A DNA stretch of 5,745 bases from PVC group bacterium (GTDB lineage: Bacteria; GCA-001730085; JADFSZ01): positions 1 through 5,745 of the forward strand of contig JADFSZ010000116.1 in the NCBI GenBank assembly GCA_022560555.1, read 5' to 3'. Of this stretch, positions 1 through 4,399 are shown one piece after another. Both the position numbers and the translations under genes were made by a program. The notes under the pieces are model-generated. The model saw only the letters and a program-made list of their open reading frames with translations, was not told the origin of the DNA and made no database searches. Numbering within the stretch: position 1 is the stretch's first letter; the number at the start of each line of letters is the position of its first letter.

Positions 1-5
1 AAATC

Positions 6-506
6 ATGAAAAAATTACTCATAACAATGATGGCTTTAATGCTGATGGTTGGTATAAGCGCATCTGCAGATGCGGCGACCCCAACAGACACTATCAATGT
101 GACCGTCACCATTACTGCTAGCGGAGTCAGTGTCGTTGTGACTCCTGATGCTTGGGCGATCAGTGACATAGATGCATCGGACTCACCGACTACCGTTGGT
201 ATCGGTCCGGATTTCTTCACGGCGCTCAATGACAGTAATGCGAGTGAAGATCTTACGCTTAGTTCAGCAAGTAGTGATGACTGGACATTCGCTAACACAC
301 CTGGCGCTGATCAGTTCGGAATGAACTTTAGCACCGGCGGAGCGTTGCCAGTGTGGAACACGATTGACTCTTCAACGGGTGGCGAACTAGCAACTGGCTT
401 GGGAGCAGGTGCAGTTCGGACATTCGATTTACAATTGGAAGCGCCGACTTCAACCACGGTCGGAGGAACTCAGCAGACAATTGTTGTCACAGTGACAGCA
501 TCGTAA
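6..506 (+). CDS. Secreted, acidic Thr/Ser-rich small protein (166 aa), possibly a structural subunit; family not recognised
   Basis: ATG at 6. The N-terminus MKKLLITMMALMLMVGISASADA has the basic n-region, hydrophobic core and ASA/ADA cleavage motif of an SPase I signal peptide, with no lipobox Cys. The mature part has no Cys, His or Lys and a single Arg. It is rich in T/S/G/D and has strand-like alternating patterns (TINVTVTITASGVSVVVTP near the N-terminus, TIVVTVTAS at the C-terminus). Only 5 nt precede the start, so no RBS or promoter can be seen. Confidence 0.8.
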   Translation: MKKLLITMMALMLMVGISASADAATPTDTINVTVTITASGVSVVVTPDAWAISDIDASDSPTTVGIGPDFFTALNDSNASEDLTLSSASSDDWTFANTPGADQFGMNFSTGGALPVWNTIDSSTGGELATGLGAGAVRTFDLQLEAPTSTTVGGTQQTIVVTVTAS

Positions 507-528
507 GAGGAAGCCAAAACGATAGATA

Positions 529-560
529 TCTCACCCCGCCTTTTTGAAGGCGGGGTGGGA
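529..560 (+). terminator. GC-rich stem-loop between gene 1 and gene 2, possibly a partial terminator or mRNA-stabilising hairpin (no U-tract)
   Basis: CACCCCGCC (532-540) pairs perfectly with GGCGGGGTG (549-557). The stem can extend outward through 529-531/558-560 (one G-U pair) and inward by two T-A pairs, leaving a TTTG loop. It begins 23 nt after the gene 1 stop codon. The downstream sequence GCGTCTATTACC has no T-run, so it is not a canonical intrinsic terminator. Confidence 0.45.
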
Positions 561-601
561 GCGTCTATTACCATGTCAAAAATAGATAACAAGGGATAAC
601 T

Positions 602-1549
602 ATGAAAAAAAATTTACACTTCATAAGTTTGATAATTATTTTGTCAGGTGTCTTTATCATTCATAATCTTTATGCCGAAGAAGAAACACCGCCTCCAAAA
701 GAAATGGGTCTCAGGGTTGAACCCGGCGGCATGCTGGTTCAATATGTCCCCATAGGCATCACTTATGATTTTAAGAAAGAAGTGGGAATCCCTCTCACGA
801 TTTACAACCGGGATGACCGGGCGCATACCTATGTGCTCACAACGAACAAACCCTCCACGGTCGCGGCAAGAAAATGGCTGAAGGGTTATATTGAAATTCC
901 CAATCCCACGTGGTTTTGGTTTGATCAAAACGAGATCACCGTCCCCGCTCAGGGTACGGCCGAGGTCAATATGTATCTCAAAACTCCGGATGCTGAAAAA
1001 TATTACAATCAGCACTGGGCGATTTCCCTGGGAGTCAGCGGCAAACCCGGATCGGGACAACTGTTTGCTTTGGCCGTCTTTCCGCGCGTTGAGATTGAAA
1101 CATTGAGTAAAGATGATGCCAACGAAAATCCCCAGGGCATATTGGCGACCATGCCGAGCACGCTTGCCTTTGAAGATGTTGCTTTGGGAACAAAAGAGTC
1201 GAGAACGCTTCGAATATTTAACAATAGTGACAAAAAAAATCAATACAAACTGACACCGATGATTTTTCCCGCAGATCCGGCCAAAAGGCAAATATTTCCG
1301 TCGCCGACATACTCCTGGATCCCGGAGGTGAAATGGATTAAGGCGGACAAGAAAAAAATCCGGATCAACCCGAGGGAAGACGCGGAGGTAACGATCAGCA
1401 TAAAAATCCCCGTTGATAAAGAGCATTATCATCGCAAATGGGAAGCGATATTGTTTATTGAACCGGAAGTTGGGATTTCGGCCTTTGCGCGCATTCAAAT
1501 CGAAACGAAATCTGAAAATGAAAACATTGCAAAAGAGAATAGCGATTAA
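602..1549 (+). CDS. Secreted or periplasmic protein (315 aa) built from two tandem beta-rich repeats; family not recognised
   Basis: AAGGGA (591-596) lies 5 nt upstream of the ATG at 602. The N-terminus MKKNLHFISLIIILSGVFIIHNLYA-EEE looks like a signal peptide or N-terminal anchor. The two halves align by eye and both end in R-[VI]-[EQ]-I-E-T (FPRVEIET, FARIQIET). They also share I-x-N-x-x-D, W-x(7-9)-I-x-[VI]-x-[PA], AEV and Y-x-x-x-W-[AE]-[IA] positions. There is no C-terminal hydrophobic anchor; the tail is KSENENIAKENSD. Confidence 0.8.
   Translation: MKKNLHFISLIIILSGVFIIHNLYAEEETPPPKEMGLRVEPGGMLVQYVPIGITYDFKKEVGIPLTIYNRDDRAHTYVLTTNKPSTVAARKWLKGYIEIPNPTWFWFDQNEITVPAQGTAEVNMYLKTPDAEKYYNQHWAISLGVSGKPGSGQLFALAVFPRVEIETLSKDDANENPQGILATMPSTLAFEDVALGTKESRTLRIFNNSDKKNQYKLTPMIFPADPAKRQIFPSPTYSWIPEVKWIKADKKKIRINPREDAEVTISIKIPVDKEHYHRKWEAILFIEPEVGISAFARIQIETKSENENIAKENSD
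704..1507 (+). repeat. Protein-level tandem duplication inside the 315-aa ORF (repeat 1 about nt 704-1102, repeat 2 about nt 1139-1507)
   Basis: Repeat 1 (aa 35-167): ..PLTIYNRDDRAHTYVLT..WFWFDQNEITVPAQGTAEVNMYLKTPDAEKYYNQHWAISLGV..FPRVEIET. Repeat 2 (aa 180-302): ..TLRIFNNSDKKNQYKLT..WIKADKKKIRINPREDAEVTISIKIPVDKEHYHRKWEAILFI..FARIQIET. The similarity is at amino-acid level only, so the duplication is old. Boundaries are approximate. Confidence 0.6.
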
Positions 1550-2342
1550 TTTACCCAGGACGGCCCTGTGGATCTTTTTCTTGATTCTTGCCTCTCCGCA
1601 AGCCGGATGGGCCGCGTCGAGCGGGTCGGTGGCTATTACCGTCACGATCGAACAGATCGCGGGTGTTGAAGTTTCGGCCCCAACGGATCAATCCGGAGAT
1701 CCTAACGAGACATTAAACTATCTTTTTAATGTAGAAAACACGGGTTCGGGTCCCGACAATTTTGATTTAACAACTGAATCGACGGAACGTTTCCGGGTCA
1801 ATTTGCCGCAAGGAAAGAAAACCGGAATCCTGAATCCCGGCGATATCGCTGCTGTTTCGGTTGAAACAACGATTCCCGAGGGTGAGGCGGCCGGGGTCCA
1901 AGACATCCTGACACTTAAAGCAAAATCCCAGATCAATCGAAAAGTGTTTGATACAGATTTTGTCACGACAACGGTAAACACGGCCGCGGGAATTCATATC
2001 GATCCGCCGCGGGACAAATCAGATCAGCCCGGCAAAACAGTTTCCTATAACTTTACATTAGCCAATAGCGGGAATGTGATTGATCAGTATCAATTGATCG
2101 CAACATCGTCTTCGGGATGGAGCGTTGCGCTTCCCGAAGGAAATCTCAGCGACTCCCTCGCTTTTGGAAAGGGAGGCGGCACAAAGCAGCAGATTGCGGT
2201 TGAGATCACGATTGATACGAATGCAGCGGATGGAACGATTGACACGCTGACTTTACGGGGCACGTCTCTCTTTGATCCTTCAGTTTTTCAGGAAGTTTTT
2301 GTAAACACAACAGCCGTGATCCGCGGCCGGAACCAACCCTAA
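1518..2342 (+). CDS. Secreted protein (274 aa from the ATG at 1518) with two tandem NEW3/CARDB/DUF11-like beta-sandwich modules
   Basis: The track ORF starts at 1413, but Met36 (ATG 1518-1520) gives a textbook signal peptide: MKTLQKRIAINLPRTALWIFFLILASPQAGWA-ASS. The two modules share one pattern. Module 1: GDPNETLNYLFNVENTGSGPDNFDL..LNPGDIAAVSVETTIPEGEAAGVQDILTLKAKS. Module 2: DQPGKTVSYNFTLANSGNVIDQYQL..SSGWSVALP..QQIAVEITIDTNAADGTIDTLTLRGTS. This is the pattern I associate with the NPCBM-associated NEW3, CARDB and DUF11 repeat domains. There is no clear SD, and the start overlaps the upstream gene by 32 nt. Confidence 0.75.
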   Translation: MKTLQKRIAINLPRTALWIFFLILASPQAGWAASSGSVAITVTIEQIAGVEVSAPTDQSGDPNETLNYLFNVENTGSGPDNFDLTTESTERFRVNLPQGKKTGILNPGDIAAVSVETTIPEGEAAGVQDILTLKAKSQINRKVFDTDFVTTTVNTAAGIHIDPPRDKSDQPGKTVSYNFTLANSGNVIDQYQLIATSSSGWSVALPEGNLSDSLAFGKGGGTKQQIAVEITIDTNAADGTIDTLTLRGTSLFDPSVFQEVFVNTTAVIRGRNQP

Positions 2343-2365
2343 CGATATCGGCAGGAGCCCTGTTT

Positions 2366-3112
2366 TTATGATTTGTTTAAAAAAACAATGATGTTTTTTA
2401 TGACAAGAGTGACGGCACTAACTGAACAGATTCCTAAAACAACTGTACGGATACGTCCCTGATCCAAGAATGCGGAAAGCCTGGGGGATATCCAGTACCC
2501 TATTAACATCCCCGGAGCAAGGAGGATTCCTATCACGAAATGTTTCATTCCCCACAAACCACCCAACCACATGACGGCGAGCATACCTAGAGACCCAAAA
2601 AAGAAGAGAAATGCCAAAAGCGCCCGTAGACGATTCCCAGGTTCATCCTGATACATCAAAGCTAAAGGCGGCGCACCAATCCCGGTTGTTGAACCCATAA
2701 ACCCGGAAATGGTTCCGATGAGCACCTGGTTTTTCCGAGTCTTTTGGATACGGTTTCCCTTAATGCTGAGAACAACAGCCAAAAGGATAATGATGCTAAA
2801 AATAAATCCAAGGAGTTTGGAATCTACGACACGAACTAAGGCCACTCCGAATATGGCACCGATAAAAATCCCTATCAGGTCCGGAATCACTTCCGTGGGG
2901 TGAAATTCGCGGCGCCCTCGATAGGCCATTTGACTTGTCAGAATCAGACTGGCAAGAATAATCGGCGCCGGCACAAAAACGGGATTGATCAACAACAATA
3001 TCGGAACGGCTATCAAGCCGGCCCCCAAACCCACCGAGGCCTGCACCGTTGCACCAAAAACAATAGCTAAGATAGCTCCGACATAATGCGCTAAGCTAAA
3101 ACCTAATTCCAT
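2366..3112 (-). CDS. TSUP (TauE/SafE, formerly DUF81) family anion/sulfite-exporter-like permease, 248 aa
   Basis: ATG at 3112. The protein is hydrophobic throughout, with about 8 predicted TM segments in a 4+4 internal repeat. Family-typical glycine-rich motifs appear near the start of each half: VGLGAGLIAVPILLL, and ISGFMGSTTGIGAPPLAL in the second half. No obvious SD. The substrate cannot be inferred. Confidence 0.85.
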   Translation of the reverse strand: MELGFSLAHYVGAILAIVFGATVQASVGLGAGLIAVPILLLINPVFVPAPIILASLILTSQMAYRGRREFHPTEVIPDLIGIFIGAIFGVALVRVVDSKLLGFIFSIIILLAVVLSIKGNRIQKTRKNQVLIGTISGFMGSTTGIGAPPLALMYQDEPGNRLRALLAFLFFFGSLGMLAVMWLGGLWGMKHFVIGILLAPGMLIGYWISPRLSAFLDQGRIRTVVLGICSVSAVTLVIKNIIVFLNKS

Positions 3113-3170: not shown

Positions 3171-3560
3171 CTACAGTTCATGTTCTTTTTCATTAACTTC
3201 AAATTCTTCAGTTTTTTCTTTTTCAACAGTAAGGCTCCATACTCTTATATTGCCGGTGAGGCCAAGCCCAAGCTTTTTGGGATGTTCACCACCCAAACTC
3301 CGGTAGTATTTTTCTATAAGATCATAAACCTTTCTTTTATTATTAATCCCCACCTTATCATCCGGGACATTTTTCATATCAGTGATTTTCCCTTCAAGAT
3401 CGCTGCCGGCCGATTGTTTAATATCTGTATGGAGGTTACGATGCGTTCGACCATCGACATGAAGATCATAATATACTCTAGATATCATGTTTTTTTCATC
3501 ACTTCCGAAATCTTTGGAGTCCAACACACATTTATTAAAGATCATTTTTGCCTTTTTCAT
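3171..3560 (-). CDS. Hypothetical soluble, highly charged protein (129 aa); no family recognised
   Basis: A strong SD, AGGAGG (3572..3567), lies 6 nt upstream of the ATG at 3560. There is no hydrophobic segment. By my count 47 of 129 residues are K/R/D/E (about 36%), and the tail is acidic (EKEKTEEFEVNEKEHEL). I saw no Walker, nuclease, peptidase or HTH motif. Confidence 0.7.
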   Translation of the reverse strand: MKKAKMIFNKCVLDSKDFGSDEKNMISRVYYDLHVDGRTHRNLHTDIKQSAGSDLEGKITDMKNVPDDKVGINNKRKVYDLIEKYYRSLGGEHPKKLGLGLTGNIRVWSLTVEKEKTEEFEVNEKEHEL

Positions 3561-3566
3561 TCTCTG

Positions 3567-3572
3567 CCTCCT
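3567..3572 (-). promoter_or_regulatory. Shine-Dalgarno AGGAGG for the 129-aa gene, one nt after the stop codon of the 144-aa gene
   Basis: The minus strand reads TGA-A-AGGAGG-CAGAGA-ATG. The TGA (3576..3574) ends the 144-aa ORF and the ATG (3560..3558) starts the 129-aa ORF. This arrangement suggests the two genes are translated from one transcript. Confidence 0.6.
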
Positions 3573-3573
3573 T

Positions 3574-4008
3574 TCAATGAATTAATATTTTTGGCTTCCT
3601 CTTATCGTCATCCTCCTCCCATATGTCTTTACATCTATATCCGTAGATGAACATAGCGATATATTGCGGAATAAGAAGGAGAAAAATCCAAACAACAATA
3701 AACATGTCAAATATCATATCCATAAACATTCCTAGGGCGTAATTTTCTTTATATATATTGGACAGGACAAAGCCATTGTGGATGAAAAACCAAAACAAAC
3801 TCATGAGCCACCATATTCTCCAGAGGATATAATTAAGAATTTTCTTTTTAAAAGTATAGCCATAAACCGCAAGAAGATCTATAGGTGAAAGATGTGTCAC
3901 TAGGGTATCAAGAAGTTTTATCGGGGCATACATAAAAAAATAGGGAAATAAAATAAAGGAAGAAACGCTCAATGTAAACACAATCCAAAAATAAATCTTC
4001 CAGAACAT
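3574..4008 (-). CDS. Hypothetical polytopic membrane protein (144 aa), aromatic-rich, with a charged C-terminal tail
   Basis: AAGGA lies 7 nt upstream of the ATG at 4008. There are about four hydrophobic segments: FWKIYFWIVFTLSVSSFILFPYFFMY, IDLLAVYGYTF, ILWRIWWLMSLFWFFIHNGFVL and MFMDMIFDMFIVVWIFLLLIPQYIAMFIYGY. The tail is a charged soluble segment, CKDIWEEDDDKRKPKILIH. No family recognised. Confidence 0.7.
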   Translation of the reverse strand: MFWKIYFWIVFTLSVSSFILFPYFFMYAPIKLLDTLVTHLSPIDLLAVYGYTFKKKILNYILWRIWWLMSLFWFFIHNGFVLSNIYKENYALGMFMDMIFDMFIVVWIFLLLIPQYIAMFIYGYRCKDIWEEDDDKRKPKILIH

Positions 4009-4044
4009 TCATCTTTCCTTATAATAAATCAATAGAATGCGAAT

Positions 4045-4070
4045 ATTATACACCTTTTTGTTATTGGCAA
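4045..4070 (-). promoter_or_regulatory. Candidate internal sigma70-like promoter for the 144-aa/129-aa gene pair
   Basis: The minus strand has a perfect TATAAT (4050..4045) 36 nt upstream of the ATG at 4008. TTGCCA (4070..4065) lies upstream of it, but the spacer is only 14 nt, which is suboptimal. The -35-like hexamer sits within the last codons of the 104-aa gene. AT-rich DNA produces such matches easily. Confidence 0.3.
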
Positions 4071-4375
4071 GAAATAATGACTAAGCCTACAAGCAAAATA
4101 CCCCAAATGGTGATTTTAGTTGTTAAGAACCCTATAAAGAACCCCAAATCTATTTTGTGAAGTTTTTGTGATTTATACAATCGAACATTGTAGAGATAAT
4201 AGGCGAAAAGGATAAAATAGCCAAATGCGCTTGGCCAAATGACAGGCTCTTGATAAACACAAAAGTCCAAAAAATAGATCGCTAAAACCAGATAATACGA
4301 AATCGCGTACGGAACACAACAATCATGACGGTAAAAATTGTAAATCTTCGAAAACAGTCCAAAGATTTTTTTCAT
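4061..4375 (-). CDS. Hypothetical small membrane protein (104 aa from the ATG at 4375; the track ORF begins at a GTG at 4384)
   Basis: The minus strand reads GAGGTGA-GATTG-ATG, an SD-like element 5 nt before the ATG at 4375..4373, so I prefer this start to the GTG at 4384. Three hydrophobic segments are present: YAISYYLVLAIYFLDFCVY, SAFGYFILFAYYLYNV and LGFFIGFLTTKITIWGILLVGLVIIS. A vicinal Cys pair occurs in HDCCVPY. The gene starts 24 nt after the ychF stop. No family recognised. Confidence 0.6.
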   Translation of the reverse strand: MKKIFGLFSKIYNFYRHDCCVPYAISYYLVLAIYFLDFCVYQEPVIWPSAFGYFILFAYYLYNVRLYKSQKLHKIDLGFFIGFLTTKITIWGILLVGLVIISCQ

Positions 4376-4399
4376 CAATCTCACCTCAACTCTTTTATG

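Follow-up and report, generated by a model that had tools for sequence, protein, structure and literature searches.

A four-gene module of secreted proteins, truncated at a contig end in a PVC group bacterium and conserved across at least ten phyla

Contig JADFSZ010000116.1, from the metagenome-assembled genome (MAG) of a “PVC group bacterium”, opens with three co-directional genes, here termed g1, g2 and g3, which code for secreted all-beta proteins, and the locus raises the question of what such a trio might build or display at the cell envelope. The window that we analyzed is this whole 5,745-bp contig, the start of which clips the operon. An initial annotation had read the trio as a secreted assembly or surface module recalling both the chaperone-usher pilus operons and the Gram-positive WxL/csc clusters, with no enzyme, usher or anchor in sight and with further components perhaps lying upstream. 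The gene coordinates that it gave (Table 1), along with the 95-nt gap between g1 and g2 and the 32-nt overlap of g2 with g3, are exact, and each of the three products indeed begins with a Sec-type signal peptide, in which a K/R-rich n-region and a hydrophobic core lead up to an AxA-type cleavage site. A sequence scan of the three proteins recovered no hydrophobic segment beyond the signal peptide and no C-terminal anchor or sorting signal; Cys is absent throughout, which leaves no lipobox. Comparison with related loci shows that the module comprises four genes and is conserved across at least ten phyla, with the window holding the second to fourth of these.

The missing gene comes into view in close relatives whose contigs extend far enough upstream (L001, L004/5, L007, L008 and L012): in each of these a large secreted Peptidase_S8 protein of 939-1590 residues is encoded on the same strand directly before g1. 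In L030, the g1 of which is 98% identical to that of the window, an upstream open reading frame (ORF) ends in “...WLEFQAPSATGVGGSQQSFTVTVGAQEP*” 74 nt before g1, and the S8 proteins of L001, L007 and L012 characteristically end in this way. A hidden Markov model (HMM) of g1 matches the C-terminal ~150 residues of each upstream S8 protein with 63-78 bits (E 1e-20 to 1e-24); the match begins at the second strand of the domain, with a Pro-rich linker ahead of it, and the N-terminal strand is missing from 12 of the 14 copies of the g1-like domain found in adjacent large proteins. Judging from these relatives, we predict that the missing upstream gene codes for a large cargo protein with a g1-like C-terminal domain, most often a subtilisin. 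Because the window is cut immediately ahead of the g1 start codon, the apparent lack of an enzyme and the count of three genes in the initial annotation are artefacts of assembly, and its surmise of components further upstream was well founded.

The N-terminal regions, or heads, of these large proteins are diverse, with proteases, ice-binding-like proteins, lectins and propellers among them. Beyond the close relatives, the head is again a Peptidase_S8 domain in L014, L016 and L022, a Peptidase_C25 domain with its propeptide (gingipain-like) in L015, a thermolysin-like Peptidase_M4 domain in L021, Ice_binding in L018 and L019, DUF2341 with LamG in L024 and an SBBP propeller with CHB_HEX_C in L026; the long members of the wider family carry S8, C25, M4, propeller, DUF2341, TIG and other heads. 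This variety indicates that the C-terminal domain which they share serves as a common handle rather than as a part of an enzyme, and that the head protein is cargo rather than a dedicated assembly enzyme. We considered the S8 protein as an obligatory assembly or processing enzyme, comparable to those of type V pili or to sortases, and rejected this as the same position is also taken by C25, M4, Ice_binding, LamG/DUF2341 and propeller proteins. The same varied and partly non-protease heads led us to reject g1 as a protease inhibitor or pro-domain. In the Lentisphaerota loci L018 and L019, Ice_binding-like (DUF3494) domains occur in both cargo classes of a single module, one with the C-terminal acceptor domain and the other with the N-terminal strand tag described below.

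The gene order, namely a large protein with a g1-like domain at its end, g1, one or two copies of g2 and a protein with the N-terminal strand, recurs in about 20 non-redundant loci where the flanks allow. These span PVC, Omnitrophota, Desulfobacterota, Pseudomonadota, Lentisphaerota, Verrucomicrobiota, Hydrogenedentota, Nitrospirota, Bdellovibrionota and Firestonebacteria. A profile scan with g2 across one genome per species returned 15 loci, from Omnitrophota, Pseudomonadota, Methylomirabilis, Lentisphaerota, Verrucomicrobiota, Hydrogenedentota, Nitrospiraceae, Bacteriovoracaceae, Firestonebacteria and Elusimicrobia. The joint conservation of g1, g2 and g3 in relatives means that none of the three is a chance ORF, and the conserved neighborhood by which the initial annotation had proposed to judge itself is thus observed. 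All-against-all clustering of the ORFs of 20 loci recovered only the g1 domain, g2 and the g3 types as conserved, and no usher; no description of the module was found in the open-access literature.

The mature g1 protein is small and, as had been noted from its sequence, strongly acidic and Thr/Ser-rich, with an isoelectric point of 4.05, 16 Asp and Glu against a single Lys or Arg, and 28.7% Ser+Thr. An AlphaFold2 (AF2) model built from the family alignment (pLDDT 87.7, pTM 0.84) is all-beta with nine strands, and a Foldseek search of the PDB with it returned FimA, in the form of the self-complemented type-1 pilin, for all of the top seven matches (E 1e-4 to 8e-4, probability 1.0), while about 30 of the top 50 were subunits of chaperone-usher pili. 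Thus, g1 models as a FimA-like pilin. The view that proteins 1 and 2 defy placement in known families also stands: no curated family scores above threshold for either, no Pfam or NCBIfam model covers g1 or even its distant family members in profile scans, and for both families the PDB is devoid of sequence relatives, the WxL chain of 9i25 being no exception in the case of g1. Close homologs of g1 are few (20 clusters at 90% identity), and a profile search with mature g1 against 1.84 billion representatives returned 2169 proteins at E<=1e-3, 779 of them at E<=1e-10. Among the best 150 of these 2169 matches, 113 are small proteins with the N-terminal strand right after the signal peptide, and another 36 are long proteins, mostly devoid of that strand, in which the domain ends 1-5 residues from the C-terminus in 35 cases. 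Hence, g1 defines a large, unnamed domain family. In a 3238-residue protein from the representative library (P0150), 28 segments in tandem match the C-terminal half of the g1 profile, on account of which the g1 domain is related to the repeat units of giant fibrillar-adhesin-like proteins.

The N-terminal strand, with the pattern I-x-V-T-V-T-I-T, is the most conserved segment of the g1 family, with V32, V34 and T35 invariant. In the AF2 model it corresponds to E7-16 and is the least confident strand, with a pLDDT of 69-81, below that of the core. The second most conserved element is the C-terminal strand (Q-T-I-x-V-T-V-T-A-S), in which V161, T162, T164 and A165 are invariant.

Two features set g1 apart from its neighbors in terms of its expression and its evolution. 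The stem-loop that the initial annotation had placed between g1 and g2 is recovered at z = -4.4, with none of 200 shuffles equaling it, and 12 of 14 relatives likewise have a strong hairpin directly after g1, with divergent sequences and z values of -3.5 to -12.7. It was rejected as an intrinsic terminator, being without a T-tract and uncalled by a terminator scan. A hairpin after the gene for a subunit is the usual arrangement for making the major subunit in excess over downstream genes, and its recurrence in 12 of 14 loci argues that g1 is made in excess in the manner of a major subunit; it is likely to be an intra-operon attenuator or mRNA stabilizer setting this excess. Furthermore, from position 419 on, the window aligns collinearly with a sister MAG (L029) at 94-97% nucleotide identity, and the encoded proteins are 98.6% (YchF), 96.8% (TauE), 96.8% (g2) and 86.9% (g3) identical, as against only 55% for g1. 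Exposed major pilins and their chaperones typically show such a pairing of a hypervariable subunit and a conserved partner, and the contrast between g1 and g2 is in keeping with an exposed major subunit served by an assembly factor that is conserved. The break in similarity between the two genomes lies inside g1 at about position 419, with only its last ~90 nt falling within the 94% block, which suggests allelic replacement of g1 by recombination with a breakpoint in the region of the conserved C-terminal strand. The 5' end of the L029 contig looks chimeric, with the g1 signal peptide and N-terminal strand replaced by unrelated sequence.

The second protein was held to consist of two tandem repeats, and its halves are indeed 28% identical (E 4e-11), forming two Ig-like domains in the AF2 model (pLDDT 88.2, pTM 0.83). 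It is the most conserved component of the module, with a mean column identity of 59% and many invariant W, Y, P and G residues, and its close homologs fall into 15 clusters at 90% identity. Foldseek matched the model to tandem ASH/PapD-like arrays (E 1e-12), to the Enterococcus faecium WxLIP structures 9i1y and 9i25, without and with the WxL partner respectively (E 8e-8), and to the chaperones DraB, FimC and PapD (~E 1e-6, TM-score 0.3-0.4). In Pfam, fn3_5 and FixG_C match g2 at the cut-off and ASH and WxLIP_PGBD below it, the latter (PF06030) with 19.7 bits against a cut-off of 27.3 (E 9e-4); WxLIP_PGBD matches are also precomputed for the proteins P0029 and P0034, and no PapD_N, PapD_C or DUF3324 match was obtained for g2. 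By analogy with these two-domain partners, we propose that g2 may act as a chaperone or assembly factor. The gene is tandemly duplicated in L015, L018, L019, L020, L023 and L024 (from Pseudomonadota, Lentisphaerota, Verrucomicrobiota, Methylomirabilis and Bacteriovoracaceae), and in L023 and L024 one of the copies is a half-size, single-domain version.

The third protein had been described as carrying two modules of the NEW3/CARDB/DUF11 type. The two modules are real, with the halves of g3 forming a tandem repeat (33% identity, E 5e-16), and their likeness to CARDB and DUF11 persists below threshold; what does not stand is g3 as a fixed CARDB-type component of the system. All of its library matches (Ig_VWA7, DUF7507/CLIPPER_2, HYDIN-Ig, NPCBM_assoc and choice_anch_T) fall under the curated cut-offs, such as 25.4 bits against 27 for DUF7507, now named CLIPPER_2 (PMC12617251), and 14.6 against 24 for the TIGR01451 repeat, and its close homologs amount to only five clusters at 90% identity. 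The products of the post-g2 genes of other loci are non-homologous overall, ranging over 154-899 residues, with bodies made of one or two CARDB-like modules, a dockerin-like C-terminus, Ice_binding with Big_9/cadherin, FG-GAP, TSP3 repeats or DUF11 with PKD, and in one case with a C-terminal peptidoglycan-binding OmpA domain. What they share, whatever their body domains, is a strand of the g1 type 3-8 residues past the signal peptide, which is present in L001, L004, L007, L008, L010, L012, L014-L016, L018-L020, L025 and others. This strand reads SGSVAITVTIEQI in the g3 of the window and NIAITVTI, AGITVTVTL, LSVTVTIE, SIAVTVTID, IAVTVTVE or ATITVTV at other loci. On these sequence grounds, g3 belongs to a variable class defined only by its g1-like N-terminal strand. 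In the CARDB-type and L004-type members a basic tail (VIRGRNQP, VRIRGRR, LIVRR or VIGTNRR) comes after a final beta-strand, and this tail might serve as an anchor by virtue of its charge or as a site of processing.

The module therefore presents three kinds of parts, namely a head with an acceptor domain only, g1 with both an acceptor domain and a strand, and g3 with a strand only, and a polar chain is the simplest use of such parts. We propose that the system assembles by strand complementation from the acceptor-domain cargo, a possibly polymeric g1 and the strand-tagged g3, with g2 as the chaperone, a scheme to which we would give an even chance of being correct. All four proteins would be exported by Sec, whereupon g2 might cap or stabilize the strand-deficient domains in the manner of PapD/FimC and WxLIP; alternatively, this stabilization might be permanent, as predicted for WxLIP on WxL. 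The N-terminal strand of a g1 molecule would then complete the acceptor domain of the head protein, thereby freeing or opening the acceptor edge of that g1 for the next one and giving rise to a short fiber or stalk, the far end of which a g3-class protein, with its donor strand and no acceptor, would cap as an adhesin or anchor. The predicted product is a non-covalent polar chain of one head, several g1 subunits and g3. The common domain and strand, the synteny, the modeled folds, the hairpin and the hypervariability of g1 are observations, whereas strand exchange in trans, polymerization, the part played by g2 and the passage through the outer membrane are inferred. Going further, we tentatively suggest, with somewhat more doubt than belief, that such modules constitute an unrecognized class of usher-independent donor-strand surface fibers, widespread in uncultured diderm phyla (PVC, Omnitrophota, Desulfobacterota, Nitrospirota, Hydrogenedentota and others), in which a hypervariable FimA-like g1 polymerizes between two interchangeable classes of cargo, namely enzymes or adhesins that end in a strand-less acceptor domain and adhesins or anchors that begin with the donor strand alone. 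Such fibers would amount to a plug-and-play display of proteases on a stalk. The initial annotation of a secreted surface module was thus sound in its observations and largely right in its interpretation, and what it lacked was the fourth gene and the logic of strand and acceptor.

Several observations weigh against this scheme. In g1, a turn of just 2-3 residues connects the N-terminal strand with its successor, and AF2 places the two in a hairpin in cis, such that exchange would need a domain swap. Some of the long proteins, though a minority, possess the strand in cis (L021 and several representatives). The TM-scores between g1 and FimA are modest (0.40-0.52), with a root-mean-square deviation of 6.5-7.7 Å in the top seven matches, and eukaryotic ASH arrays fit g2 better than PapD does in Foldseek. 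The strands of g1 and g3 are more alike within loci than between them (permutation p = 0.015), which speaks for the scheme, but this is a weak test in which three loci were anchored in the wrong register and the loci, being related, are not independent. Finally, the hosts are all diderms, yet the core of the module is without an usher or other outer-membrane component. The window holds no large beta-barrel gene, and a conserved outer-membrane component was rejected, given that FadL/TodX- or PorV/UPF0164-like barrels lie 3-8 kb from the module in only four of the roughly 20 loci (Table 1). Such a barrel is a possible, though not conserved, outer-membrane partner. The barrels are often accompanied by response regulators or PilZ genes.

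Of the alternatives, the one that survives best is a static, non-polymeric display complex comparable to that of the WxL proteins, in which the g1-like domain would bind the envelope either alone or at the C-terminus of an enzyme or adhesin, g2 would be a WxLIP-like partner that keeps the domain, completed or stabilized, at the cell surface, and the N-terminal strand would simply begin the fold or bind g2. The WxL clusters of Firmicutes have precisely this architecture, with a small protein consisting of the domain alone, a large variable protein that ends in the same domain and a single conserved partner with tandem Ig domains, and WxLIP is predicted to complete the beta-sandwich of its partner with a strand (PMC10599100). 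The resemblance of g2 to WxLIP, in fold and weakly in sequence, and the retention of the g1 strand in cis in the AF2 model agree with this reading. Nevertheless, it leaves unexplained both the tagging of otherwise unrelated g3 proteins with the strand alone and the absence of the strand from the large proteins, and the g1 excess implied by the hairpin together with the FimA-like fold suits a polymer better. Moreover, g2 is without the C-terminal transmembrane helix that follows DUF916 and DUF3324 in WxLIP, the WxL domain (PF13731, with its dual Trp-x-Leu motif) gave no match in g1 or 18 homologs even at E<=10, and the hosts, being diderms, do not expose a cell wall. We accordingly regard a WxL-like display complex as unlikely, if worth keeping in mind.

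A second alternative is that the g1-like domain serves as a C-terminal sorting signal comparable to the C-terminal domain (CTD) of type IX secretion cargo in Bacteroidota, targeting the head proteins to a translocon or shuttle, with g1 and g2 as accessories or decoys. An Ig-like sandwich at the extreme C-terminus of S8, C25 and M4 proteases, adhesins and glycan-binding proteins is indeed the cargo spectrum of the type IX CTDs, and both the barrels at the four loci mentioned above and the weak Por_Secre_tail matches in proteins neighboring the modules of L026 and L027 are in keeping with it. Against this, barrels are missing from most of the loci with long flanks (PorV-like ones being found in 2-4 loci only), no conserved PorV or PorU lies nearby, the S8, C25 and M4 head proteins lack a Por_Secre_tail match, as the S8 proteins do one to TIGR04183, and the hosts fall outside Bacteroidota. 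A sorting signal would give no role to the N-terminal strand of g3, nor would it explain a free-standing, hypervariable and over-expressed copy of itself, and we consider this alternative improbable. As for the notion that three unrelated secreted Ig-like proteins are chance neighbors sharing a low-complexity “VTVT” by coincidence, Thr/Val-rich beta-strands are common and the Pfam matches weak, but the gene order kept across at least ten phyla and the HMM match of g1 to the upstream protein effectively refute it. The strand also speaks against it, being found at the same position past the signal peptide in at least 14 post-g2 genes and in only a few other ORFs of these loci, mostly antisense shadows of g1, and we find the notion scarcely credible.

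If the strand-tag model holds, it would define a new and easily recognizable grammar of surface assembly, built from an acceptor domain at the C-terminus, a donor strand at the N-terminus and a helper with tandem Ig domains. Thousands of “hypothetical” proteins in phyla without cultured members could be annotated with this grammar, which would also predict the proteases and adhesins that their cells display. The model would further imply usher-free, chaperone-assisted strand complementation in diderms, raising the question of how the outer membrane is crossed. The donor strand and acceptor domain could also serve protein engineering as a natural non-covalent “tag and catcher” pair.

The remaining features of the window lie outside the module. 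A terminator-like stem-loop after g3 marks the end of the operon ahead of a convergent TauE gene, and the rest of the window is entirely on the minus strand, with TauE, three small ORFs in a low-GC stretch and YchF. This stretch (3171-4384, minus strand), between TauE and YchF, has a GC content of 0.33-0.38 as against ~0.47 elsewhere in the window and is ~96% conserved in L029; its ORFs, of 129, 144 and 107 residues, two of them very hydrophobic, had no match in Pfam, NCBIfam or PADLOC. An antisense ORF of 333 residues (644-1645, minus strand) was rejected as a gene, since its recurrence in relatives merely shadows the conservation of the g2 frame. Among the related loci, L001 is the only one with a Peptidase_S26 gene, 3.4 kb upstream of the module, and in L007 the region directly downstream (7969-13547, minus strand) encodes ThsB_TIR, DUF6602 and several tiny ORFs, with the look of a defense island unrelated to the module.

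Table 1. Coordinates of features in the window and of outer-membrane barrels near the module in related loci.
Feature	Position	Strand	Details
Contig end	1-5	+	Module cut here, 5 nt ahead of the g1 ATG; upstream gene missing
g1	6-506	+	166 aa; ORF; signal peptide residues 1-23
g1 N-terminal “tag” strand	93-116	+	I30-N-V-T-V-T-I-T37; 6 residues past predicted cleavage site; proposed donor strand
g1 C-terminal strand	474-503	+	QTIVVTVTAS
GC-rich stem-loop	521-569	+	Directly 3' of the g1 stop; -36.2 kcal/mol
g2	602-1549	+	315 aa; ORF; secreted, two tandem Ig domains
g2 PapD-like/ASH Ig domains	~710-1102 and ~1142-1507	+	Two domains in AF2 model
g3	1518-2342	+	274 aa; ORF; frame open from TTG 1413
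g3 N-terminal tag strand	1629-1649	+	V38-A-I-T-V-T-I44; 6 residues past predicted cleavage site; motif as in g1
g3 Ig modules, CARDB/DUF11(CLIPPER)-like	~1677-1958 and ~2016-2237	+	Sub-threshold Pfam/NCBIfam matches and internal repeat
g3 basic tail	2319-2339	+	VIRGRNQP; C-terminus of g3 in the window
Terminator-like stem-loop and T-run	2350-2374	+	GGCAGGAGCCCTGTT then TTTATGATTT; 3' of g3
TauE	2366-3112	-	ORF and curated-library match
Barrel near module, L001	13188-14363		FadL/TodX or PorV/UPF0164-like
Barrel near module, L010	6624-7970		FadL/TodX or PorV/UPF0164-like
Barrel near module, L026	16224-end		FadL/TodX or PorV/UPF0164-like
Barrels near module, L027	380-1324 and 4117-5766		FadL/TodX or PorV/UPF0164-like

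Against the background of known systems, the closest parallels are with the chaperone-usher pili. In these (type 1 and P pili, with FimA and PapA as pilins), the incomplete Ig fold of a pilin is completed by an N-terminal extension of the next subunit. Like them, the module combines a small subunit with an Ig fold that FimA matches best, a conserved N-terminal strand of alternating hydrophobic residues, a two-domain “tip” protein (FimH or PapG in the pili) whose C-terminal subunit-like domain is without that strand, and a two-Ig PapD-like protein encoded beside the subunit, and it further shares with them the hairpin after the major-subunit gene and the pairing of a hypervariable subunit with a conserved, chaperone-like partner. 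It departs from them in the absence of the usher (FimD/PapC, PF00577) from the window and the ~20 related loci, in the lack of any Fimbrial, PapD_N or PapD_C sequence match, in a g2 that is ~90 residues longer than PapD and better fitted by ASH arrays, and in an N-terminal strand set on a tight turn rather than a flexible linker. The heads of the module are enzymes, mostly proteases, it has an extra strand-only class in the form of g3, and its hosts are PVC, Omnitrophota, Desulfobacterota and other bacteria, not the Proteobacteria-type hosts of these pili. From the WxL/csc clusters it differs, beyond the points raised above, in having the additional class tagged with the N-terminal strand and protease heads in place of the host-binding domains of WxL proteins.

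The type V pili (FimA/Mfa1) of Bacteroidia are assembled from precursors with a lipobox Cys that are processed by an Arg-protease, whereas g1, g2 and g3 are Cys-free and gave no P_gingi_FimA-type Pfam match; furthermore, the Ice_binding, LamG and propeller heads indicate that a protease is not obligatory for the module, unlike in those pili. The isopeptide stalk domains of the CLIPPER/DUF11 type are defined by an above-threshold DUF11/DUF7507 match together with a Lys-Asp-Asn isopeptide triad, and g3 scores below threshold. Usher-less polymerization has precedents in TasA/TapA of Bacillus and in archaeal bundling pili, threads and cannulae, where Sec-exported beta-sandwich subunits polymerize via donation of a terminal strand. 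In the first of these TapA, a minor protein with a shared donor strand, nucleates or anchors the TasA fiber, and this sharing of a strand between TapA and TasA parallels that between g3 and g1. The module differs from all of these in its dedicated two-Ig partner, g2, and in its acceptor-domain enzymes, which are without a counterpart there, and its proteins gave no Pfam or NCBIfam match to TasA (peptidase_M73/camelysin) or to SipW, the signal peptidase dedicated to the Bacillus fiber. Taken together, these comparisons place the module in neither the chaperone-usher nor the WxL systems; rather, we regard it as a new form of the chaperone-assisted, strand-complemented and WxL-like surface systems.

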